IMG/VR virus record: IMGVR_UViG_2703718828_000002
Span: 1-27,795 of that record
DNA length: 27,795 nt
From: a virus
Taxonomy: Duplodnaviria; Heunggongvirae; Uroviricota; Caudoviricetes
Reading direction: 5' to 3' (one strand)
Position numbers and translations under genes: made by a program. The first letter of the stretch is position 1, and every line of letters starts with the position of its first letter. Positions 2,819 to 20,994 of this stretch are shown in pieces. The notes below the pieces were generated by a model. The model made no database searches and was not told the origin of the DNA. It saw only the letters and a list, made by a program, of their open reading frames with translations.

Positions 2819-4339
2819 TTATTCAGGCTTTAATTTATTGATAATAGAATCTACCATTTTAATGCCTGCCTCATTGACTATGACTGAATTGACTACTCTA
2901 TCAAAATAGTCTTCTATATGGTGGGAAAATAGGAAAGCAGCACTTGATGGTTTTTTGTTCTTTTCAACTGCAGATTGCAAGACTTCATGAGGCGGAATTT
3001 TAAACCTTTTGCATGATGCAATGAGATATTCAAACTCTTCAAATGATAGACAAAAAATATTCTCTGTAGGGATATGATAGTTATGTTTAAACTTGTCATA
3101 TATCTTATTCATCTCATCTTTAGCATAAGTATTAGCTAGGATACTACCATTGCCTAAGAAAAGGTTTTTATATGTAATGCAAATGATATATGAGTTAGCC
3201 CTGAATGGAGCTATTATTCGCTCATTAGAGTATATTTCTCGATTAACTTCGTGAGATTGTTCGATTGCTTTTAATACCGATTTCTTTATTTTTCCTGCAA
3301 TATCCTCAGGGCGTAATGTTACCATGCCTTTTTGGTGTATCTCAACGCCTTTAGCATCAATGAAAATATTTGCCTCAGTATGTGGAATGAAATAATCAAC
3401 TACTTTATTATCTTTAGGTAGTCGTTCTTTAAGGTATTTTTCGTTATGAAAATCAATTTCGCTTTCTTTTAGTATTAATTCCAGTGCATTTTCAAATACA
3501 TTTCCAAAGCTATCCATGAACTTCTCGGCATCAGTTCTTCTTAAAAGATCATATATGAACGTCTGTATGCTTGTTGAAGTCAGTTGTGTGTGTATCTGAA
3601 AATACTCTGAACCTTTTTTTATTAATGGTTTTTCAAGGAAAGGTGATGATGAGTAGTATTCAAGCAAAGGTTTATCATAGGTTTTTGATTTGCAAAATGT
3701 AGATAGTTCATTGTAATTTATTGATATTGCATCAAGAAATTTCTCAATGGTATTTCTAGGAATGATGTCAAATAATATAGTAAATGTATCTACATTCATT
3801 TTTCTCACGGGATGCTCTTCTGTTATGTGAGTTATTAATATGTAAGATAGCTTAAGAAAGTCTTCTATAGATACATTCGTGATAGTAAAAAAACTTGTCT
3901 TTATTTTATGGTTTTTTTCAAGTTCTGAAAATAGAAAGACTTGTCTGCTAATTGTGTTTAGAGCGTCAATTTTCTGGTAGATTCCTTGTTGGTATAGATT
4001 ATTTCTAATGAAGAAATGCATGCCATTCTTCCTCTCAAGACCGATAGGAATAATGTTCAAGGTTTCATAAGTTTTTTGGAAGAGTTTTATTGCTTGATTT
4101 TTATCGAGGATTTTGAATTTTTTATTCTTGCCAGTTACTGACGCAGACCACTTTAGACATAAATTAACAATCCAAGGCATGTGTCGTAACATGTGGATAT
4201 TATCTTCAAATTTTTGTAAGTTATATTGCATACAGAATTCGATAAATAAATCAGGGGAATAACCTTGGATTTCTGAACGAATAGCATCCATTCTTAACTT
4301 TGCAACCGCATCAGATTGAATATCTAATTTTTGAATCAC
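2819..4339 (-). CDS. Hypothetical 506-aa protein; AT-rich cargo gene between the att core and the prophage integrase
   Basis: Long uninterrupted ORF with markedly lower GC than int; GTG start (rc of 4337-4339) with GGAG 9 nt upstream overlapping the int stop; no family recognised by eye. A weak D...DxK pattern (VVDYFIPHTEANIFIDAKG) is the only motif-like element noted. Confidence 0.65.
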   Translation of the reverse strand: MIQKLDIQSDAVAKLRMDAIRSEIQGYSPDLFIEFCMQYNLQKFEDNIHMLRHMPWIVNLCLKWSASVTGKNKKFKILDKNQAIKLFQKTYETLNIIPIGLERKNGMHFFIRNNLYQQGIYQKIDALNTISRQVFLFSELEKNHKIKTSFFTITNVSIEDFLKLSYILITHITEEHPVRKMNVDTFTILFDIIPRNTIEKFLDAISINYNELSTFCKSKTYDKPLLEYYSSSPFLEKPLIKKGSEYFQIHTQLTSTSIQTFIYDLLRRTDAEKFMDSFGNVFENALELILKESEIDFHNEKYLKERLPKDNKVVDYFIPHTEANIFIDAKGVEIHQKGMVTLRPEDIAGKIKKSVLKAIEQSHEVNREIYSNERIIAPFRANSYIICITYKNLFLGNGSILANTYAKDEMNKIYDKFKHNYHIPTENIFCLSFEEFEYLIASCKRFKIPPHEVLQSAVEKNKKPSSAAFLFSHHIEDYFDRVVNSVIVNEAGIKMVDSIINKLKPE

Positions 4340-4351
4340 AATAGGTCTCCA

Positions 4352-5365
4352 CTACAAATTATAAAGAGGATTTTTAGTCACCGCGTCTTCAAGGTGATCG
4401 GGCGAAAAGTGGGCGTAAATCATGGTCATTTTTATATCGGCATGACCCAAAATATCACGCAGTACCAGTATGTTTCCGCCGTTCATCATAAAGTGACTGG
4501 CGAATGTATGGCGAAGCACGTGGGTGCATTGGCCCTCCGGTAGGTCAATACCGGCCCGCTTTACTGCCCGCTCAAAGGCTTTTCTGCATGGCGTGAATAA
4601 CTTTCCTCTGTTTTTGGGGAGTTCATCATACAGATCCTGAGATATCGGCACAGTACGGTTTTTCTTGCCTTTTGTTTTTGTATAAGTAATTCGGTATTTC
4701 GATATTTGATGGCCCTGCAGATTTTCGGCTTCACTCCACCGTGCGCCAGTAGCCAGGCATATTTTTGCAATCATTAGTAAGCTAGGGCTTTGAGATTCAG
4801 CACATGCCGCCAACAGGCGCTTGATTTCGTCCGTGGAAAGAAAAGCCAGCTCACCTTCGGCAATTTTGAAGGTCGGAAGTCCTGCCAGCGGGTTTGGTGC
4901 TGACCAGTGTCCTAGTTTTTTTAATGTACCGAACACAGATGATAGATTGCGCTGTTCAAGGTTTACCGTGCGGGGCTTAACGGGCGACATCAGCGTGCCA
5001 TCTTCATTTCGCACTTCACCTTTTAGCCGTGCTTCGCGGTATTTCGTAAAGTCACCGGCAGTCAGCTCTGAAGCGATGGGATCGCCCAGACCATTACAGA
5101 TAATTCCAAGTTTCGCCATGAGTCGCTTGGGGTCTGCGAGTGTTTGACCATACAGGGAATACCACAGCTCAATTAATTCTGATAGGTGTCGCCGATCTTC
5201 CTTTTCTCCCAGCCAAGGTTTCTTGTTTACCTCGTCCATGGTGAAATTCTCAAACGCAATGGCTTCGCCTTTCGTCGCAAATTGTTTGCGTACGCGTTTG
5301 CCATCTCGCCCGTTTGGGTAGCATTCACATAACCACTTTCCGTTCGGCTGTTTTCTGATGGTCAT
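4352..5365 (-). CDS. int: P2/186-family tyrosine integrase
   Basis: 337-aa translation with C-terminal tyrosine-recombinase signature region (...HVLRHTFASHFMMNGGNILVLRDILGHADIKMTMIYAHF) consistent with R..HxxR..Y catalytic residues; ATG at rc 5363-5365 one nt after the repressor stop. Confidence 0.9.
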   Translation of the reverse strand: MTIRKQPNGKWLCECYPNGRDGKRVRKQFATKGEAIAFENFTMDEVNKKPWLGEKEDRRHLSELIELWYSLYGQTLADPKRLMAKLGIICNGLGDPIASELTAGDFTKYREARLKGEVRNEDGTLMSPVKPRTVNLEQRNLSSVFGTLKKLGHWSAPNPLAGLPTFKIAEGELAFLSTDEIKRLLAACAESQSPSLLMIAKICLATGARWSEAENLQGHQISKYRITYTKTKGKKNRTVPISQDLYDELPKNRGKLFTPCRKAFERAVKRAGIDLPEGQCTHVLRHTFASHFMMNGGNILVLRDILGHADIKMTMIYAHFSPDHLEDAVTKNPLYNL

Positions 5366-7950: not shown

Positions 7951-8804
7951 GCACCATCCTGAAATGGGCGGGAAATAAAACCGCCATTATGTCCGAACTG
8001 AAAAAACACCTTCCTGCTGGCCCGCGACTGGTTGAACCTTTCGCGGGTTCCTGTGCTGTGATGATGGAGACGGATTACCCCAGCTATCTGGTTGCGGATA
8101 TTAATCCTGATTTAATCAACCTCTATAAAAAGGTTGCCGCTGATTGTGAATCGTTTATATCTCGCGCCAGAGTTTTATTTGAGATCGCAAACAGGGAGGT
8201 GGCTTATTACAACATAAGGCAGGAGTTTAATTACTCCACTGAAATTACTGATTTCATGAAAGCGGTATATTTCCTGTATCTCAATCGTCACGGTTACCGT
8301 GGTTTATGTCGCTATAACAAGAGCGGGCATTTCAACATTCCCTACGGTAATTATAAAAATCCGTATTTCCCTGAAAAAGAAATTCGCGCATTTGCAGAAA
8401 AAGCCCAGCGGGCAACGTTTATCTGCGCCAGCTTTGATGAAACGCTGGCGATGTTGAAGGCGGGGGATGTGGTGTATTGCGATCCGCCGTATGACGGCAC
8501 GTTTTCCGGTTATCACACTGACGGCTTCACTGAAGATGACCAGTATCACCTGGCATCCGTTCTTGAACATCGGTCATCAGAAGGACATCCGGTCATTGTT
8601 TCTAACAGTGACACATCCCTGATCCGTTCGCTGTATCGCAATTTTACTCACCACTACATCAAGGCAAAACGCAACATCGGTGTGGCAGCTGGCGAGGGTA
8701 AATCAGCAACAGAAATCATTGCTGTTTCCGGGCCGCGCTGCTGGGTGGGATTTGATTATTCGCGTGGCATGGACAGTTCTGCCGTGTACGGAGTACGTGC
8801 ATGA
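7947..8804 (+). CDS. dam: DNA adenine methyltransferase (Dam-like, N6-adenine)
   Basis: N-terminal LKWAGNK AdoMet-binding motif and catalytic DPPY (VYCDPPYDG). ATG 7947 with GGAGG 6 nt upstream, overlapping the previous stop (ATGA); the track start at 7887 has no RBS. Confidence 0.9.
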
Positions 8805-11215
8805 GTCATGCCGATATGAACAACTGCTGCGGCTTTAACGAGGCTACCGCAGCATTCTCATGGAACAGCCCGAAAAAGGCCATTAACCCTTATCTGGACC
8901 CGGCGGAAGTTGCGCCGGTTTCTGCGCTTTCAAACCTGATCACTCTGTACGCTGCCGATAACGAGCAGGAACAACTGCGCCGTGAGGCACTGAGTGATCA
9001 GGTCTGGGAGCGTTATTTCTTTAATGAATCCCGTGATCCTGTCCAGCGCGAAATGGAGCAGGATAAGCTAATTAGCCGGGCAAAGCTGGCGCATGAGCAG
9101 CAGCGTTTTAATCCAGACATGGTCATTCTGGCGGATGTCAACGCCCAGCCTTCCCATATCAGCAAGCCGCTGATGCAACGTATTAAATACTTCAGCAACC
9201 TGGGCAGGCCAAAGGCTTATTCCCGCTATTTGCGTGAGACGATTAAGCCATGCTTGGAACGACTGGAGCATGTACGCGACAGCCAGCTATCTGCATCTTT
9301 TCGTTTTATGGCAAGCCATGAAGGGCTGGACGGTCTGCTGATCCTGCCTGAAATGAGTCAGGATCAGGTGAAACGCCTGTCCACCCTTGTCGCTGCGCAT
9401 ATGAGCATGTGTCTTGATGCCGCTTGTGGTGATTTGTACGCCTCCGATGATGTTAAGCCGGAAGAAATCCGCAAGACATGGGAAAAGGTGGCAGCAGAAA
9501 CCCTGCGACTGGATGTCATACCGCCTGCGTTTGAGCAACTCCGCCGGAAAAGAAACCGCCGCAAACCTGTGCCCTATGAACTCATTCCGGGTTCGCTGGC
9601 GCGTATGCTGTGCGCCGACTGGTGGTATCGGAAATTATGGAAGATGCGTTGCGAATGGCGGGAAGAGCAGTTGCGTGCTGTCTGTCTGGTCAGCAAAAAA
9701 GCATCTCCCTATGTCAGCTATGAAGCCGTGATGCATAAACGTGAGCAGCGCCGTAAGTCGCTGGAGTTTTTCCGTTCTCATGAACTGGTGAACGAAGACG
9801 GCGACACGCTGGACATGGAGGATGTGGTAAACGCCAGCAGCAGCAACCCTGCGCATCGCCGCAATGAGATGATGGCCTGTGTTAAAGGCCTGGAGCTTAT
9901 CGCGGAAATGCGCGGTGACTGCGCCGTTTTCTACACCATCACCTGTCCGTCACGTTTCCATTCCACGCTAAATAACGGCAGGCCCAACCCGACCTGGACA
10001 AATGCGACGGTAAGACAAAGCAGTGATTATCTGGTTGGCATGTTTGCTGCATTTCGTAAGGCGATGCACAAAGCCGGATTGCGCTGGTATGGCGTGCGGG
10101 TGGCTGAGCCGCATCATGACGGTACAGTTCACTGGCACCTGTTGTGTTTTATGCGCAAAAAAGATCGCCGCGCCATTACTGCTTTGTTGCGTAAGTTTGC
10201 CATTCGTGAAGACCGCGAGGAGCTGGGGAATAACACGGGACCACGCTTTAAGTCTGAGTTGATTAACCCGCGCAAAGGAACGCCGACAAGCTACATCGCG
10301 AAATATATCAGTAAGAACATTGACGGGCGTGGTCTGGCTGGCGAGATCAGCAAGGAAACGGGTAAATCCCTGCGTGATAACGCTGAATACGTGAATGCCT
10401 GGGCGTCTCTGCATCGTGTTCAGCAATTCCGCTTCTTTGGCATTCCGGGGCGTCAGGCTTACCGTGAACTGCGATTGCTGGCTGGTCAGGCGGCAAGGCA
10501 ACAGGGTGACAAAAAAGCAGGTGCGCCGGTACTGGATAACCCGCGCCTTGATGCCATCCTGGCTGCTGCTGATGCTGGTTGTTTTGCCACCTACATCATG
10601 AAGCAGGGCGGCGTACTGGTTCCCCGCAAATATCACCTCATCAGAACCGCTTATGAAATCAACGAAGAGCCAACCGCCTATGGCGATCACGGTATTCGTA
10701 TTTATGGCATCTGGTCACCCATTGCAGAGGGCAAGATCTGCACTCATGCAGTGAAGTGGAAAATGGTTCGTAAGGCCGTTGACGTTCAGGAGGCGGCAGC
10801 CGACCAGGGCGCTTGCGCCCCTTGGACTCGTGGCAATAACTGTCCCCTTGCTGAAAATTTGTACCAACAAGGGAAAGACAAATCAGCTGATGGGGATACC
10901 AGAACGGATATTACCCGTATGGATGACAAGGAGTTGCACGATTACCTGCACAGTATGAACAAAAAAGAACGCCGGGAACTGGCTGCAAGATTACGCCTGG
11001 TGAAACCGAAACGGCGTAGAGACTACAAACAGCGAATTACAGACCATCAACGACAGCAGCTCGTCTATGAACTGAAGTCCAGAGGATTTGATGGCAGCGA
11101 GAAAGAGGTCGATTTACTCCTTCGCGGCGGCAGCATTCCGTCAGGAGCAGGCCTGCGTGTCTTCTATCGGAACCAGCGTTTGCAGGAAGATGATAAGTGG
11201 CGGAACCTGTATTAA
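8801..11215 (+). CDS. A: Replication initiation protein A (rolling-circle nickase, P2 gpA family)
   Basis: 804 aa with HUH-type motif [10 protein letters not shown] and paired tyrosines YIAKYISK; ATGA overlap with the dam stop; size and position match P2/186 gene A. Confidence 0.9.
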
Positions 11216-12034: not shown

Positions 12035-13075
12035 TTGATTAAAGTTGTTGATCTTTTTTGCGGAGCAGGTGGCTTAACTCATGGTTTGCAACGAGCAGGG
12101 TTGAATGTGGTTGCAGGCTATGATATTGATGCTACATGTCGGTATGCTTATGAAAAAAATAACAATGCTTTATTTGTGCAAAAAAGCGTCACTGAACTTG
12201 ATGAAGGGGAAATAAGTAAGCATTTTAAGGATGCATCAATTAAAGTTTTAGCTGGATGCGCTCCATGCCAGCCATTTTCTAGTTATACAAATACTGATAA
12301 ATCAGTAAAAAAAATAAAAGACCATCGATGGTCTTTATTGTATAGCTTTGCTAAGCAAATTCAATTATGTGCTCCAGATATAGTCACAATGGAGAATGTT
12401 CCAAGAGTTATTAACCACAAAGTTTTTAAAGATTTTGTGAAGACTTTAAAGTCTGAAGGGTATTTCGTTTGGTATGATACTGTATTTTGTCCTGATTATG
12501 GAATGGCCCAAAGCCGATCTAGATTAGTGTTATTAGCGTCCAAGTTTGGCGAGATAAAACTAATCCCGCCAACACATGATAAAAATAACTATAACACTGT
12601 ACGTAGCGTTATTGGTGGATTGCCTCCTATTGATGCTGGATCGAGTGATGAGAAAGACAGACTTCATTATGCTGCATCTTTATCACCATTAAATATGGAG
12701 CGAATAAAACATTCTAAGCCAGGTGGAACATGGAAAGATTGGCCTGAGTACTTACGGGCGTCATGCCACACCAAAGAATCAGGATCTTCTTACACTGCAG
12801 TTTATGGAAGAATGAGCTGGGATAAACTTGGCTCTACAATTACAACACAATGTATAGGTTTTGGTAATGGTCGATTTGGTCATCCAGAACAAAATAGAGC
12901 TATTAGCCTAAGAGAGGCAGCTTTGCTTCAATCTTTTCCTCTAACTTATGAATTTTGGCCAGCTGAAGTAAAAGTTGAACTCAGGAATGTTGCACGACTG
13001 ATTGGTAATGCTGTGCCGGTGAGGCTCGGTGAAGTTGTTGGGCAAAGTATTATTGAACACCTTAAAAGAAAATAA
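12035..13075 (+). CDS. DNA cytosine-5 methyltransferase (Dcm-like m5C MTase), copy 2, paralogous to copy 1
   Basis: 346 aa with DLFCGAGG, GCAPCQPFS, ENV, QSRSR and GNAVPV motifs; collinear by eye with the 160..1191 protein along its whole length; TTG start with strong SD; AT-rich. Confidence 0.9.
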   Translation: MIKVVDLFCGAGGLTHGLQRAGLNVVAGYDIDATCRYAYEKNNNALFVQKSVTELDEGEISKHFKDASIKVLAGCAPCQPFSSYTNTDKSVKKIKDHRWSLLYSFAKQIQLCAPDIVTMENVPRVINHKVFKDFVKTLKSEGYFVWYDTVFCPDYGMAQSRSRLVLLASKFGEIKLIPPTHDKNNYNTVRSVIGGLPPIDAGSSDEKDRLHYAASLSPLNMERIKHSKPGGTWKDWPEYLRASCHTKESGSSYTAVYGRMSWDKLGSTITTQCIGFGNGRFGHPEQNRAISLREAALLQSFPLTYEFWPAEVKVELRNVARLIGNAVPVRLGEVVGQSIIEHLKRK

Positions 13076-13099
13076 AAAGGGCGAATCGCCCTTTTTTTT
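13074..13099. terminator. Bidirectional terminator shared by the convergent MTase and GHKL genes
   Basis: A-run, GGGCG-AAT-CGCCC hairpin, T8 run; overlaps both stop codons (13073-13075 and 13098-13100). Confidence 0.5.
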
Positions 13100-15056
13100 A
13101 GATACCATCAACAATTTTCATTATTCGTGCAGCATCATCTTTTTTGCTCTGATACTCAGAGTATGCTTGTTTGGATTGTATTATAAGATCGCTATATGTT
13201 AATACCTTTGCATTTATAGATTGTAGCTGTGAGCGAATATAATTATCTCCACTTCCGTCATAACCTTTGCCGACAAGAAAAACTACATCTATCGGTGGTA
13301 TTTTTCCGGCAGGGCAACTATTTGGGTTGTTTCTAAACCACTGCTCTGTGGCAACAACATATTTCCTTCCTTGACCTACTAATGCCAAAATATCAGGATA
13401 TACATTTGGTCTTTTCATTTCAATGATGACGTGTTTACCTGAAACGGTTTTGAAGGCTATATCAATTCTTGCACCACTTTCAGCGTCAGGGTTAACCTCT
13501 TTCAATTCCTTAGTCAGGGTTTGTTCCATAACTGTAGAACCAGTAACCCTCTCCCATGATGGGTCTAACAGCCATAAGTGGTCATAAAGATATTTTTGTA
13601 CAGCCTTCTCTAACTCATTGTCATCGGTGATTTTTTGAAATTTCTCAATAACTTTCAATCGCTGTGATGTAATCTCATAAAAAAGGCTTGCCTCAATATC
13701 ATTTACAGAAGCAAAAACCTCCCTAAAATGTTCTGAGTTTAAATCGCTAATTTTATCTAAAGCCTCAAGGTTATCTTTTATTCTTAATCTTTCAAAAGCA
13801 AGAACTGTATTTTTTAATACGGTTTTTTTTGCAATTTTCTGGTTTTCTTCATCTCCAGAAAATCTAAATGTGTTAATTTTGCCTAGTAATTTTTCGGCGC
13901 TGTTTCTTTCATGTTTTGACATGGAATCAAGCCAATCACTTACAGCAGGTGAAGTTTTTTTAACCTCGCTAAGACCTTTTGCTCTTCGCCATTCATCCCA
14001 TTCTTTATCTATTTTTTGTAATGTCCGTTCTAAGAAACCCTTAATCACAGGATAGCGTGGATCATTCTGCTGTAATTTCTGTCGGGATGAGGTTGCCATG
14101 TCAGGTTTTTCATTTTCATCTAAAAAATCTGCGACAAGTTCCCCTACTAAATAATTTGTAAAAACCTTTGCGCTTCCGAATTCAAGCAATATATCTTCTT
14201 CAAATACCCGCCCATTTGATATTACGGTTATCGTGTTGTTAGATATTTCAGGGTCTTTTTTAAGTTGAGATGGTTTCTCAACACTTCCTACATAACCAGT
14301 AATGAAATAATCTACGCCTTCAAAAGATAATTTGTTATCTAGAAGGCTTTTTTTAGAAAGATTTTTGCAAGATTTTACTCTTGCGGGATCTGAACTACCA
14401 AACTCCCATAAAAATTCAAGATCTGAAAGGAAGTCTCTATCTTCAGTAGTTATCTCAGTGTCATTGATTTTAACTATAAAATCATGACCAGGACCAATTA
14501 TGCTAAACCGTCTGGCAAGTCTTTTTCTTAGATAGGTCTGAGTTCTATCAATGGATTTTTTTAAATCCATAAGAACTATTGTCGTCCCTATACTAAAGTC
14601 TTTCGGAACATTAATAATATTTGCAACATATTGTTTACTGCTTTTTATACAGCGTTGCAATTCATCAACGTCAACTTCAAATCCCTGAGGCGTTTGGCCA
14701 ATTTTGTGAGAAAATACTTGGATTTTGTTAGCTAATGAAAACATTGCTAATTTACCAATGCCTTTTCTACCCATGACTTGTCGTTGTAATCCATCACTTT
14801 TATACCTTCCACTTTCTCTTCTGGCATATCCAACTTTTAGGAATTTATTAATGATGTCATCTTTTGACATTCCATGTCCATCATCTTTAATTATTACCTT
14901 TTCATTTTCAACATCTAGAGTGATGTCTACATTTTTAGCATCCGCATCCCAAGCATTTGAGATTATTTCAGTTAGAACAGCTGGTGTGTTAGAGTAAAGA
15001 CTCATACCTAAATGATTCAATACATTCAGGTCTATTTTAATTTCGAAATCGGACAT
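13098..15056 (-). CDS. GHKL-superfamily ATPase (MORC/MutL/Hsp90-like Bergerat fold) with C-terminal PD-(D/E)xK-like motif; candidate effector partner of MTase copy 2
   Basis: 652 aa. N-terminus carries N-box EIISNAWDADA, G1 box DDGHGM and G2 box GRKGIGKLAMFS; C-terminus carries RIDIAF...12 residues...IIEMKRP (D...ExK). ATG at rc 15054-15056 with AAGGA RBS; AT-rich. Confidence 0.8.
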   Translation of the reverse strand: MSDFEIKIDLNVLNHLGMSLYSNTPAVLTEIISNAWDADAKNVDITLDVENEKVIIKDDGHGMSKDDIINKFLKVGYARRESGRYKSDGLQRQVMGRKGIGKLAMFSLANKIQVFSHKIGQTPQGFEVDVDELQRCIKSSKQYVANIINVPKDFSIGTTIVLMDLKKSIDRTQTYLRKRLARRFSIIGPGHDFIVKINDTEITTEDRDFLSDLEFLWEFGSSDPARVKSCKNLSKKSLLDNKLSFEGVDYFITGYVGSVEKPSQLKKDPEISNNTITVISNGRVFEEDILLEFGSAKVFTNYLVGELVADFLDENEKPDMATSSRQKLQQNDPRYPVIKGFLERTLQKIDKEWDEWRRAKGLSEVKKTSPAVSDWLDSMSKHERNSAEKLLGKINTFRFSGDEENQKIAKKTVLKNTVLAFERLRIKDNLEALDKISDLNSEHFREVFASVNDIEASLFYEITSQRLKVIEKFQKITDDNELEKAVQKYLYDHLWLLDPSWERVTGSTVMEQTLTKELKEVNPDAESGARIDIAFKTVSGKHVIIEMKRPNVYPDILALVGQGRKYVVATEQWFRNNPNSCPAGKIPPIDVVFLVGKGYDGSGDNYIRSQLQSINAKVLTYSDLIIQSKQAYSEYQSKKDDAARIMKIVDGI

Positions 15057-15121
15057 ATCCTTTCCTTGCTGAAGCTTGTAGGCAGAGCTTAAGCCTACTC
15101 ATGTGAACAAAATCCCTCGAA

Positions 15122-15150
15122 ACTAAACATTGATTTTGACTAAATGTCAA
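15122..15150 (-). promoter_or_regulatory. Candidate promoter for the GHKL gene overlapping a 15-nt palindrome
   Basis: Minus strand TTGACA (rc 15145-15150), 17-nt spacer, TTTAGT (rc 15122-15127); TTGACTAAATGTCAA (15136-15150) is a perfect 5-5 inverted repeat that includes the -35. Confidence 0.35.
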
Positions 15151-15296
15151 ATGTAGATGTTGCCTTGTGTAATGCATATCTATGCTGCATGAATACGCAT
15201 GATCTCTTAAGGATCGCTTTTGTTGAAGCACGCCAGAATTGGCGGGCTTTTGCTTATGTCATGCATGTGCATGAAAACTACTACATGAAGCGGGCA

Positions 15297-15315
15297 GGCG
15301 TGGCGGGGATACGAG
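15297..15315. other. Candidate cos site (cohesive-end sequence of P2/186 type)
   Basis: GGCGTGGCGGGGATACGAG matches the first 13 nt of the 19-nt cohesive end recalled for P2/186 (GGCG[A/T]GGCGGGGAAAGCA...); located just beyond the portal gene end, as cos is in P2. Confidence 0.45.
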
Positions 15316-15403
15316 CGCGCGCAGCGGGGTAAAATGGCCAAAATCCGGCGCAGCCTCTGGCCCGCTGGCGGCCTCATTTTGCGTAGGGGGGATAAATGTC
15401 AGG

Positions 15404-15441
15404 ACAAAAAGAAACGCCCCGCAGAATGCTGCTGGGGCGTT
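15404..15441 (-). terminator. Rho-independent terminator after the portal gene
   Basis: Minus strand AACGCCCCAGCAG-CATT-CTGCGGGGCGTT followed by TCTTTTTGT; about 36 nt downstream of the Q stop. Confidence 0.5.
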
Positions 15442-15476
15442 GTGAGAATTGGTCAGTTATTGATGTTGTGAGTATG

Positions 15477-16526
15477 TCAGCCTCGTTTGCTCTTAAGTCC
15501 TAAGTCATAGGCTTCAAAACGGATCACCTCTTCACCCAGCCAGTTGTTAAGCTCCTGCAGTCGCTTTTGCAGTGGCATCAGTTCATTGCGGACGAAAACA
15601 CGGCTCGCCTTTTCCACATCACCGAAGCCACCAGTGTTGTTGGGAATGATACCCATCATTTGCGGCGGCACACGATGCGCCGCCATCATGTCGTCCCGGC
15701 TTACGTTCTTGATGTTCAGAAACTCATCCTTCGCCGCGACTTCTGATAACGGGATAATCTGAAGTCCGTCCTTTTTGCCGTTAGGAGAGTACATAAACAG
15801 ATTGCGGAAGTTACCTGGTCCTTTGGCGCTTTTCATTGCATTGCGGAGGTTGTTCACATCCTCCTGGTTTTGTGCGGCGTCGGTCATGTACATGATGAAG
15901 CCTGCATGACTGCCGTTGATGTAATACTTCCGGCGGAACAGCGTGGCGGACTCGTTGAGCAGGGCTGACGGAATGGCAGAAAGATAACCGGGCAGGCCGT
16001 AGATCTCCTGGTTGATGTCCGGTTCCATCAGATGAAAAATGCTGCCTTTCGCGAACTGATACGGCTGGGTTGTCATACCGTATTGCACAAACCAGTAGGT
16101 ATCCAGGTCTAACCCGCGTCGGGTGTATTTTGCCAGAGCAGGCTCTAGGGCGATAACTTCACCGAAGCGGTTCGTGCGTTTCTCCAGGTAGGCGTTACCA
16201 AATACCAGATAGTCCTGCACAAAACGTGAAAAAGCCTGCTGGCTGAGCAGCGGGTGAGGGATGTAGGTGCTGGTCAGAATGTTGCATTTCACCGCAATCG
16301 GTGAGCTGTGATGCACGGCGGCGCGGAAGGTTCGCGCCAGTCCGTCGAAACTCACAGGCGGCTCATACCAGCGATCCATCTGTACGCATTCCACATAGTC
16401 CAGCAGTTCACGGCGGTCCAGAACAGGAACGGGATCGCCGAAGCTGAATGCTTCGGCTGTAGTTTGACTTTTAAGCTGGATCTGTTTCGTCGCCGCAGCG
16501 CGGTTCTTCTTACTCTTTCCCATCAA
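15477..16526 (-). CDS. Q: Portal protein (P2 gpQ)
   Basis: 349 aa; extended collinearity with P2 Q as recalled (...AFSFGDPVPVLDRRELLDYVEC...WYEPPVSF...AVHHSSPI...). ATGA overlap with the terminase gene. Confidence 0.9.
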   Translation of the reverse strand: MMGKSKKNRAAATKQIQLKSQTTAEAFSFGDPVPVLDRRELLDYVECVQMDRWYEPPVSFDGLARTFRAAVHHSSPIAVKCNILTSTYIPHPLLSQQAFSRFVQDYLVFGNAYLEKRTNRFGEVIALEPALAKYTRRGLDLDTYWFVQYGMTTQPYQFAKGSIFHLMEPDINQEIYGLPGYLSAIPSALLNESATLFRRKYYINGSHAGFIMYMTDAAQNQEDVNNLRNAMKSAKGPGNFRNLFMYSPNGKKDGLQIIPLSEVAAKDEFLNIKNVSRDDMMAAHRVPPQMMGIIPNNTGGFGDVEKASRVFVRNELMPLQKRLQELNNWLGEEVIRFEAYDLGLKSKRG

Positions 16527-18289
16527 AAAATCTCCACAATATTGCTGGTATTGGCGGATTCGCCCTGCAGCGGTTCGTTAAACAGTGCGTGCATCGTTGC
16601 CCAGGCCAGATCCGCATGGCTGGCTTCTTCGCTGCGGCTGGCTTCATAGGTCGGGCGGTTGCCACTGGCGGTGGTGGAGCGACGGATTGCCATAAAGGAC
16701 TGCGCTATGTCGGTGTGTCCGGCGTCAAACTCCAGACGGCGGTGGCTGATAATGTCGTAGGCCTTGAGTACCAGGGCGTTTTTAACGTTGGGGTTGTAGA
16801 CAAACTCCCGGACGGCAGGAAAGAATGCTTTCACGTTCTCGTAAACCCCGTGGCCGACGCCAGTTGAGTCGATGCCGATGTATGTCACGTTGTACTGTTC
16901 GGTCAGTTTTTTGATGGCGTCAGCCTGGGCGCGGAAGTCCATCCCGCGCCACTGGTGACGCTCAAGAATGCGAAACTTACCGCCTGGCACGGCTGGCGGT
17001 GCCACCACCACGCATCCGGCGCTGTCGCCGTTCTGCGTACCTTTTGCCGGGTCATAACCGATCCACACTTCGCGCCAGCCAAACGGGCGCAGGGCCAGTG
17101 CATGAAAGTCGGTCCAGACTTCCCAGCTGTCCACCATGCACGCCTGCAATTCGCTGAGCGGGAACACAGATGCGAGATCGTCAACGAACTCGCACATCAG
17201 CAGGTTCTGGTATTCGTCCGGGCTGTACTCCATGCGCAACTGGTCGAGGTCGAACAGGTTACAGCCGCCGCGTACCGCATCTTCCACGGTGACTATCTGG
17301 CGGTATTGCCCGTCTGCGCACAGCAGGCCGGGGGCCAGATTGCTGTGGGACAGGTCGATGTCCACCTTATCGGCTTTGTTGCGCCCACGGTTGAACAGCG
17401 CACCGGACCAGAACGGATAAGCACTGTGTGTCAGGCTGGATGGCGTGGAAAAATAGGTCTGTCGCCATTTCTTGTGAATAGCCATACCGGAAGCCACTTT
17501 GCGCAGCTCCTGGAATTTCGGTATCCAGAAATATTCATCCAGATACAGGTTGCCGTGGTAACTCTGGGCCGTGCGGGCATTGGTGCCGAGGAAATACAGT
17601 GTGGCCCCGTTGGGAAGCACCATCGGATCGCCTTTCAGCTCCACCTCCACTTCTTTGGCGAAGTCGATGATGTACTGCTTAAAGACGTGGGCCTGTGCTT
17701 TACTGGCGGAAAGGAAAATCTGGTTACGTCCGGTAAGCAGGGCGTCAATCAGGGCTTCACGGGCAAAGTAAAAGGTCGCGCCGATCTGGCGTGACTTCAG
17801 CAGGTTACGGATGCGATTGGTTTTTCCGGCTTCCCACCAGTGGCGCTGGTAGTTGAACATGGAGGAATGGAAGATTTCTTCCAGCTTCTCAATCTGTTCA
17901 TCGGTGAAGACATTCTTTTCCGGCTGACGGCGCGGGCCTTTGTTGCGGTTGGCGACGTTAGGGTTTAAGTCGGCTTCGTTGCCGCCATTGTTAAACTTGC
18001 CGATCCGCGCGTGGCGCTCAGACTGGCGCGCCAGCAGGTCAATCTCTTTGAAATCTTTCCCTTCTTTGTGCTCCTTCATGATGAGCTGGCAGTAGCGTGC
18101 GGCGGTGGTGAGCTGCATCTGATCCAGCGGCCCATAGTCACCCCACTTGTCGCGTTTTTTCCAGCTGTGAACGGTTGCAACTTTCTCGCCCAGCATTTCA
18201 GCAATGCGGGCTACGCGGTATCCCTGAAAGTACAGCAGCATGGCCTGCCGACGGGGATCGAGATCTGCGGGTGTCAGTGTGGTGTTCAT
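16523..18289 (-). CDS. P: Terminase large (ATPase) subunit (P2 gpP)
   Basis: 588 aa; N-terminus ...RRQAMLLYFQGYRVARIAEMLG... and C-terminus ...YEASRSEEASHADLAWATMHAL... match P2 P as recalled. Confidence 0.9.
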   Translation of the reverse strand: MNTTLTPADLDPRRQAMLLYFQGYRVARIAEMLGEKVATVHSWKKRDKWGDYGPLDQMQLTTAARYCQLIMKEHKEGKDFKEIDLLARQSERHARIGKFNNGGNEADLNPNVANRNKGPRRQPEKNVFTDEQIEKLEEIFHSSMFNYQRHWWEAGKTNRIRNLLKSRQIGATFYFAREALIDALLTGRNQIFLSASKAQAHVFKQYIIDFAKEVEVELKGDPMVLPNGATLYFLGTNARTAQSYHGNLYLDEYFWIPKFQELRKVASGMAIHKKWRQTYFSTPSSLTHSAYPFWSGALFNRGRNKADKVDIDLSHSNLAPGLLCADGQYRQIVTVEDAVRGGCNLFDLDQLRMEYSPDEYQNLLMCEFVDDLASVFPLSELQACMVDSWEVWTDFHALALRPFGWREVWIGYDPAKGTQNGDSAGCVVVAPPAVPGGKFRILERHQWRGMDFRAQADAIKKLTEQYNVTYIGIDSTGVGHGVYENVKAFFPAVREFVYNPNVKNALVLKAYDIISHRRLEFDAGHTDIAQSFMAIRRSTTASGNRPTYEASRSEEASHADLAWATMHALFNEPLQGESANTSNIVEIF

Positions 18290-20343: not shown

Positions 20344-20994
20344 ATGAGCCTGAGTCCCGCACGGCAGCATCGCCTGCGCGTTCAGGCTGAACAGGCCGCC
20401 CGCGAGGGCGGCAGCGTTCGCCACGCGTCGGGCTATGACCTGATGCTGCTGCAACTGGCGGAAGACCGCCGCCGTCTCAAGGGCGTTCAGTCCACGGTGA
20501 AAAAAGCGGAAATCAAGGTGGAGCTGTTGCCGAAATATGCCGCCTGGGCGGAGGGCGTCCTTGCTGCCGGAGGCGCTCAACAGGATGACGTGCTGATGTA
20601 CGTGATGCTGTGGCGCATTGATGCCGGAGATTATGCCGGGGCGCTGGAGATCGGGCGTCATGCCCTGCGTCATGGCTGGGTGATGCCGCTGGGTAACCGC
20701 AACGTGCAGACCGTGCTGGCAGAGGAAATGGCAGACGCGGCGCAGAGCGCAATGCTTGCCGCCACCGGCTTTGATGCCGATCTGTTGCTGCAGACGCTGG
20801 AGCTGACAGACGGTCTGGATATGCCGGACCAGTCACGGGCGCGTCTGCATAAAGCGATTGGCGCTGTCCTGAGTGAAAGCAACCCGGCTTCCGCCCTTAA
20901 TCATCTCAACCATGCGTTACAGCTCGATCCCCGCTGTGGCGTGAAAAAAGACAAACAGCAGCTGGAGCGCAGACTGCGCAATGACAGCCGCTGA
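20344..20994 (+). CDS. M: Terminase small (endonuclease) subunit (P2 gpM)
   Basis: 216 aa; ...LMYVMLWRIDAGDYAGALEIGRHALRHG... matches the conserved gpM core; directly follows N. Confidence 0.85.
   Translation: MSLSPARQHRLRVQAEQAAREGGSVRHASGYDLMLLQLAEDRRRLKGVQSTVKKAEIKVELLPKYAAWAEGVLAAGGAQQDDVLMYVMLWRIDAGDYAGALEIGRHALRHGWVMPLGNRNVQTVLAEEMADAAQSAMLAATGFDADLLLQTLELTDGLDMPDQSRARLHKAIGAVLSESNPASALNHLNHALQLDPRCGVKKDKQQLERRLRNDSR

Follow-up and report, generated by a model that had tools for sequence, protein, structure and literature searches.

Does the 19-nt sequence lying between the cargo genes and the portal gene of a P2-like prophage mark the place at which the phage terminase opens the genome? 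The question arose from a 27,795-nt stretch of viral DNA (IMG/VR record IMGVR_UViG_2703718828_000002, referred to in its full length as the window), in which the original prediction had put a candidate cos site between the cargo block and the portal gene, some 160 nt beyond the end of the latter. A direct read of the sequence at 15297-15315 (+ strand) gave GGCGTGGCGGGGATACGAG, and the gap separating it from the stop codon of the portal gene was 161 nt, the portal open reading frame including its stop beginning at 15477 on the minus strand. The site and the prophage genes that bear on it are as follows.

8801-11215, + strand: gpA replication protein
15297-15315, + strand: 19-nt cohesive-end sequence, the equivalent of lambda cosN, placed by register with the annotated cos of P2, 186 and PSP3
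15406-15441, - strand: Rho-independent terminator of the portal/terminase operon (hairpin plus U-run, -20 kcal/mol, z = -4.7)
15477-16526, - strand: portal protein, gpQ homologue (Pfam Phage_portal, 5.8e-19; 62% identical to P2 gpQ)
16523-18289, - strand: large terminase (TerL), gpP homologue (Pfam Terminase_6N, Terminase_6C and Terminase_5; 63% identical to P2 gpP)
20344-20994, + strand: small terminase (TerS), gpM homologue (Pfam Phage_term_smal, 2.2e-40; 49% identical to P2 gpM)

The gene order is that of canonical P2, running from gpA through a type II restriction-modification (R-M) cargo, cos, portal and TerL to the gpO scaffold, the gpN capsid protein and TerS, and a cognate P2-type terminase (gpP plus gpM) is encoded on the same element. 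As in P2 and 186, cos lies on the strand opposite to the portal gene with a terminator between the two; this terminator, which 0 of 200 shuffles equalled in folding, is the analogue of P2 tQ (160-181) and 186 tW (164-187) and sits in the same relative place. Cos and portal gene are 161 nt apart in the window, against 167 in P2 and 176 in 186. The identities of the portal protein (62%), TerL (63%) and TerS (49%) to their P2 counterparts indicate a lineage of Peduoviridae distinct from P2 and 186, the closest named phages being SEN8, Fels-2 and Cartapus, which are classified in Felsduovirus and Elveevirus. The best complete relative, the prophage of E. coli PEC1011, is 96.5% identical to the window across the prophage and 100% identical over the 420-bp intergenic region.

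According to the original prediction, the first 13 nt match the 19-nt cohesive end of P2/186 and the last six diverge. The deposited records bear this out, the 13 nt agreeing in full with 186 and with one mismatch with P2. The 186 cos (U32222, 1-19, annotated 'cos') reads GGCGTGGCGGGGAAAGCAT and that of P2 (AF063097, 1-19, annotated 'cosL') reads GGCGAGGCGGGGAAAGCAC; the first 13 nt agree with 186 at 13/13 positions and with P2 at 12/13, and four of the last six differ from 186 (positions 14, 16, 17 and 19). Over the full 19-mer, identity amounts to 15/19 with 186, 14/19 with P2 and 16/19 with phiCTX, the differences from 186 (four) and from P2 and P4 (five) falling mostly in the last six nucleotides. 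The sequence at 15297-15315 has the form GGCG(A/T)GGCGGGG followed by seven more bases, as do P2-family cos sites. A two-fold symmetry about the 19-mer was set aside as weak (8/20 positions).

A resemblance of this length might have arisen as a chance G+C-rich match, or belong to a regulatory element of a cargo gene unrelated to packaging. In favor of coincidence, the 13-mer with two mismatches is expected 0.85 times per window by chance; a search allowing two mismatches therefore has no power, and it was replaced by an exact test and by analysis of the flanks. The exact pattern GGCGWGGCGGGGA occurred once in the window and in 0 of 100 dinucleotide-preserving shuffles. In 596 Gb of species-representative genomes, the exact 19-mer was found 54 times, 50 of these matches being accompanied by the conserved cos flanks or core. 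The other four, in unrelated genomes and devoid of flank homology, are attributable to chance, an estimated four or so such matches being expected when both strands are searched for a 19-mer.

Where a phage record starts at a cos end that is annotated or known, its right and left ends were joined and the product was aligned with the window, no gaps being introduced. Throughout the stretch between roughly -65 and +26, counted from the top-strand nick, the window held its register against the joined ends of P2, 186, PSP3, P4, phiCTX and SEN8. The conserved core reads TGCAT.AAAAC.....C...AAG.GGGC. to the left of the 19-mer, GGCG.GGCGGGGA.A..A. within it and.GCGCGC. to its right, the matching flanks thus being TGCAT.AAAAC...AAG.GGGC on one side and GCGCGC on the other. 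It coincides with the 55-bp cos core of P2-family phages and P4 that is credited to Ziermann & Calendar 1990 in later papers (PMC9594776, PMC2231350, PMC5694545).

15268-15322, + strand: equivalent of the 55-bp cos core (-29 to +26 from the top-strand nick), defined by ungapped identity

Identity of this core to the window was 53/55 for the HS phage described below, 52/55 for SEN8, 43/55 for PSP3, 42/55 for both P2 and 186, 41/55 for P4 and 38/55 for phiCTX. By way of scale, P2 and 186 agree with each other at 48/55 positions, and the window accordingly shares the core conserved among P2, 186 and P4 at 41-43/55 when set against P2, 186, PSP3 and P4. The comparison with the cos of sequenced P2-like phages that the original prediction had proposed thus came out ungapped, at 38-43/55 over P2, 186, PSP3, P4 and phiCTX. 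From this register, the nicks would fall at 15296/15297 on the top strand and at 15315/15316 on the bottom strand, leaving 5'-protruding ends of 19 nt.

The window has in common with P2, 186, PSP3 and P4 the offsets of the motifs flanking the nicks, GCAT boxes at -124, -111, -101 and -29 and the portal terminator. Since both the terminase (TerL 63% and TerS 49% identical to those of P2) and cos have diverged, cross-packaging between the lineage of the window and these phages is not assured. PhiCTX (NC_003278) shares with the window the ACGA at positions 15-18 of the 19-mer, which is missing in P2 and 186, as well as the GCGCGC right flank; it differs in the boxes of its left arm, which read GCAG instead of GCAT, in carrying the ctx cargo between cos and the portal gene, and in its overhang, which is annotated as 21 nt, AGGCGTGGCGGGGGGACGACT, one base longer on each side of the aligned 19-mer. 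Overhang length is therefore not invariant in the family.

Much of what can be expected of the site follows from an E. coli phage in which its exact counterpart has been mapped. Zund et al. 2021 (Microbiome 9:77, PMC8008629, Suppl. Table 4) list 5'-GGCGTGGCGGGGATACGAG-3' as the cos of the mitomycin-induced E. coli HS phage 1, at NC_009800.1 926016-926034, giving as source 'StartSite analysis/phageTerm'. Inspection of the HS locus placed the 19-mer at exactly 926016-926034, with gpA on one side and the portal gene on the other. The HS proteins are 99.8% (TerL), 99.5% (TerS), 98.4% (gpA) and 94.7% (portal) identical to those of the window. With a terminase this similar and a site that is identical, cutting at 15297-15315 is the expected outcome here. 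The two phages differ at 23/150 positions of the cos region and in their cargo, HS carrying hypothetical genes on both sides of cos and the window an R-M pair on the left side alone. For Fels-2, the same study (PMC8008629) mapped att and not cos; its cos assignments concern Fels-1 and the HS phage.

The exact 19-mer is also given, by annotation only, as the cos of the Salmonella phage SEN8 (PMC5427200), in whose record (KT630647.2) the first base aligns with 15297 and the last with 15296. In the Escherichia phage Cartapus (OV696611), it is annotated as 'putative cos site, homologous to the cos of P2'. Both assignments were made by homology and are putative, and in both phages cos and portal gene are separated by a further gene that the window lacks. 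An identical cos was thus published in 2017 and again in 2021, and the feature is already known.

The 21-nt overhang annotated for phiCTX raises the alternative that 15297-15315 does lie in a cos site, and that the stagger is other than 19 nt, for instance 21, the ends then falling 1 nt outside the 19-mer on each side. For the HS phage, whose terminase is nearly identical, the published cos is precisely the 19-mer, and the cohesive ends of P2, 186 and PSP3 are all annotated as 19 nt, as is proposed here; a different stagger is accordingly very improbable.

The setting of the 19-mer was further delineated in IMG/VR, where more than 120 contigs contain it exactly. In 120/120 loci examined (L005-L124), gpA lay to the left on the plus strand (-486 to -3800) and the portal gene to the right on the minus strand (+148 to +3535) whenever the neighbor in question fell within the retrieved DNA. 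Across the 112 unique loci, identity per column was 0.8-1.0 inside the interval given below and about 0.25, that is, random, outside of it, with abrupt edges.

15173-15322, + strand: full cos island (-124 to +26), defined by column identity across 112 unique 19-mer loci

The island is asymmetric, extending 124 bp toward the right end of the genome and 7 bp past the 19-mer. Homology to other prophages begins at 15168-15173, and in blastn against the HS phage, 15174-15323 stood out as an isolated block with unrelated cargo on both sides. Identity so sharply bounded indicates that the functional cos unit is an asymmetric module of about 150 bp, which refines the original prediction in that the functional site is not just the 19-mer. 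The 110 bp next to the start codon of the GHKL gene (15057-15167) showed no conservation in the 112 unique loci and presumably belong to the cargo; no sigma-70-like promoter was found in 15000-15520. In relatives, namely the IMG/VR loci and HS (L192), cargo occupies the space between gpA and cos as well as that between cos and portal (up to 3.5 kb in the latter), so that the 150-bp island is bordered by an insertion zone on either side. The cargo of the window is confined to the gpA side.

These observations dispose of the notion of a fortuitous or cargo-related match. The flanks are homologous and keep their register for some 150 bp, gpA and portal are constant companions of the site, and the 110 bp proximal to the cargo are unconserved; together with the 0/100 shuffles, they leave this reading with a negligible probability, and we consider it refuted. 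The preferred reading, then, is that 15297-15315 serves as cos in a P2-like (Peduoviridae) E. coli prophage that appears to be intact, and we hold this reading to be very probable. Its support is manifest in the sequence, in the register with characterised cos sites, in the fixed place of the site within a variable region and in the published mapping of read starts to an identical 19-mer in HS; the in-register alignment with P2, 186, PSP3, P4 and phiCTX and the HS mapping uphold the proposed location between cargo and portal. The activity of the prophage in the window is a matter that we infer.

The left arm of the island contains a series of short repeated boxes and a palindrome.

15173-15177, 15186-15190 and 15196-15200, + strand: distal (T/C)GCAT boxes, reading TGCAT, TGCAT and CGCAT, at offsets -124, -111 and -101
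15262-15266 and 15268-15272, + strand: proximal TGCAT boxes, the first (-35) variable in relatives, the second (-29) nearly invariant
15231-15244, + strand: palindrome CGCCAGAATTGGCG followed by GGCTTTTGC (T-run), the only terminator-like match in the scan

GCAT or ATGC was observed 8 times in the left arm of the window, against 1.05 expected. GCAT recurs at -123, -110, -100 and -28 in HS, SEN8, 186, PSP3 and P4, and the boxes are present in Chitinimonas elements too; in P2, the first GCAT is shifted by one base, to -122, the other offsets being as in the window. Among 128 unique left arms, GCAT was found in 107-113 at each distal offset and in 126 at -28, and offset -34 reads GCAG or GCAC in most relatives. 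At two or three of the box offsets, GCAG takes the place of GCAT in phiCTX, and TGCGTT does so in a Pasteurella prophage (L159). Given this concerted change of the boxes between lineages, the left arm is proposed as a cosB-like array bound by gpM. In lambda, the staggered nicks are made at cosN, next to which cosB forms an asymmetric arm bearing several binding sites for the small terminase; lambda cos is a functional analogue only, having an overhang of 12 nt, no sequence similarity and a terminase of another family. We put forward tentatively, and with somewhat more doubt than confidence, that the 124-bp left arm may consist of phased recognition boxes for the small terminase gpM, (T/C)GCAT at -124, -111, -101 and -29, a suggestion drawn from the pattern of conservation. 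If it is correct, the box array rather than the 19-mer would set the specificity of packaging and the range of satellites that a helper can serve, and the 55-bp core usually quoted would understate the functional site. The putative array may already have been described in the older P2/phiCTX literature.

The hairpin formed by the palindrome at 15231-15244 had a folding energy of -13.3 kcal/mol (z = -2.4). The palindrome is present at the same offset in 186, PSP3, SEN8 and HS and is imperfect in P4. Proteins may bind to it, or it may act as a terminator and protect cos against rightward transcription.

According to PMC2231350, the P2-type terminase prefers closed circular monomers as its substrate and cleaves the 55-bp cos to give 19-nt ends. 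For the prophage in the window, we propose that after excision and replication gpM (20344-20994) and gpP (16523-18289) would recognise the module of about 150 bp at 15173-15322, and that the terminase would nick the two strands 19 bp apart, cutting the top one just 5' of G15297 and the bottom one opposite 15315/15316. Separation of the strands would yield a linear genome with complementary, 5'-protruding ends of 19 nt. The left end would begin 5'-GGCGTGGCGGGGATACGAG and lead into the portal gene; the right end would close with the R-M cargo and then the left arm of cos (124 bp). Upon injection, the ends would anneal and ligation would re-form the circle.

A site that is cos by descent may nonetheless sit in a cryptic or defective prophage, as a fossil never cut in this strain. 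The 27.8-kb window holds only part of the prophage and ends within the tail genes, and leftward of 4368 it bears no relation to the closest complete relative, both of which are compatible with a defective element. Against this, none of the packaging genes is truncated and their domains are complete, the prophage of the related PEC1011 possesses int, CI/CII and gpA together with the entire head, tail and lysis complement, and the cos core is identical at 53/55 positions to that of an experimentally inducible phage, HS. We therefore judge a fossil site improbable, if less so than a stagger other than 19 nt. With 15297-15315 read as the cos of an intact prophage, the ends of the packaged genome are fixed, the genome running from 15297 rightwards and round to 15315, and 15173-15322 is defined as the fragment for cosmid or transduction work. 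The result aids the annotation of this element and leaves general understanding unchanged.

The same reading places the cargo at one end of the packaged molecule.

12035-15056, strand not assigned: cargo block at the right end of the packaged genome (methyltransferase plus GHKL restriction enzyme)
12035-13075, + strand: C5 cytosine methyltransferase (Pfam DNA_methylase, 4.7e-57; PADLOC MTase_II, 2.8e-87)
13098-15056, - strand: GHKL-type restriction enzyme (Pfam HATPase_c_3, 2.1e-23; PADLOC REase_II PDLC03419, 9.4e-91, full length)

The full-length match of the GHKL protein to the REase_II model identifies the methyltransferase-GHKL block as a type II R-M system, a second refinement of the original prediction. 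Lying between gpA and cos, the block is found at the right end of the linear molecule that is packaged, as had been anticipated. P2 carries old/tin in this same place, a region known as a cos-proximal defence hotspot (Rousset et al. 2022, PMC9122126), to which the type II R-M cargo of the window can now be assigned. In keeping with a hotspot of variable, defence-rich content between gpA and gpQ adjoining cos, the gpA-cos and cos-portal distances varied widely over the 120 loci. A Kluyvera prophage (L189) has a similar cargo on the left side of its cos, with a methyltransferase 56% and a GHKL protein 38% identical to those of the window. The window encodes a second C5 cytosine methyltransferase (160-1191, - strand), 62% identical to that of the cargo (12035-13075), which sits to the left of the integrase gene (4352-5365) in DNA devoid of homology to PEC1011; PADLOC returned no match for the neighboring open reading frames at 1264-2457 and 2819-4339 (both - strand).

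The 19-mer with its core is distributed over many genera of Enterobacterales, Pasteurella testudinis and Chitinimonas, the latter a betaproteobacterium with several copies per genome. In P. testudinis, it is found in a P2-like prophage (L159) with a portal protein and a TerL 61% and 56% identical to those of the window, which has kept the exact 19-mer while its left arm has diverged. Its retention in so divergent a prophage indicates that the ATACGAG variant is old and widespread and not a local E. coli allele. Chitinimonas sp. BJB300 has several copies of the 19-mer with core and GCAT boxes (L139, L140, L144, L145 and L169), only one of which (L145) stands beside portal and terminase genes. 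Further loci with the exact 19-mer, core and GCAT boxes are L148, L172, L183 (C. taiwanensis), L142 (Pantoea) and L151 (Rosenbergiella).

Some of these genomic copies of cos have no portal, terminase or gpA gene within reach and adjoin either cargo of the P4 hotspot type or an integrase of P4 type. Such orphan copies, of which L183 and L142 are examples, may be satellites that use the packaging signal of a helper, judging from the genes beside them; those next to P4-type cargo or integrase in Pantoea and Chitinimonas were counted as support for the reading in which the box array confers specificity. In the 120 IMG/VR loci, no P4-like satellite bearing the 19-mer was detected on the basis of psu, sid or delta. 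To the right of cos in L183 are genes for an AAA_21/AAA_15 ATPase, a DUF4062 protein and a P4-type integrase (51% identity). In L142, a sce7725/sce7726 pair lies by cos, and P4 cII is annotated by NCBI as a sce7726 family protein.
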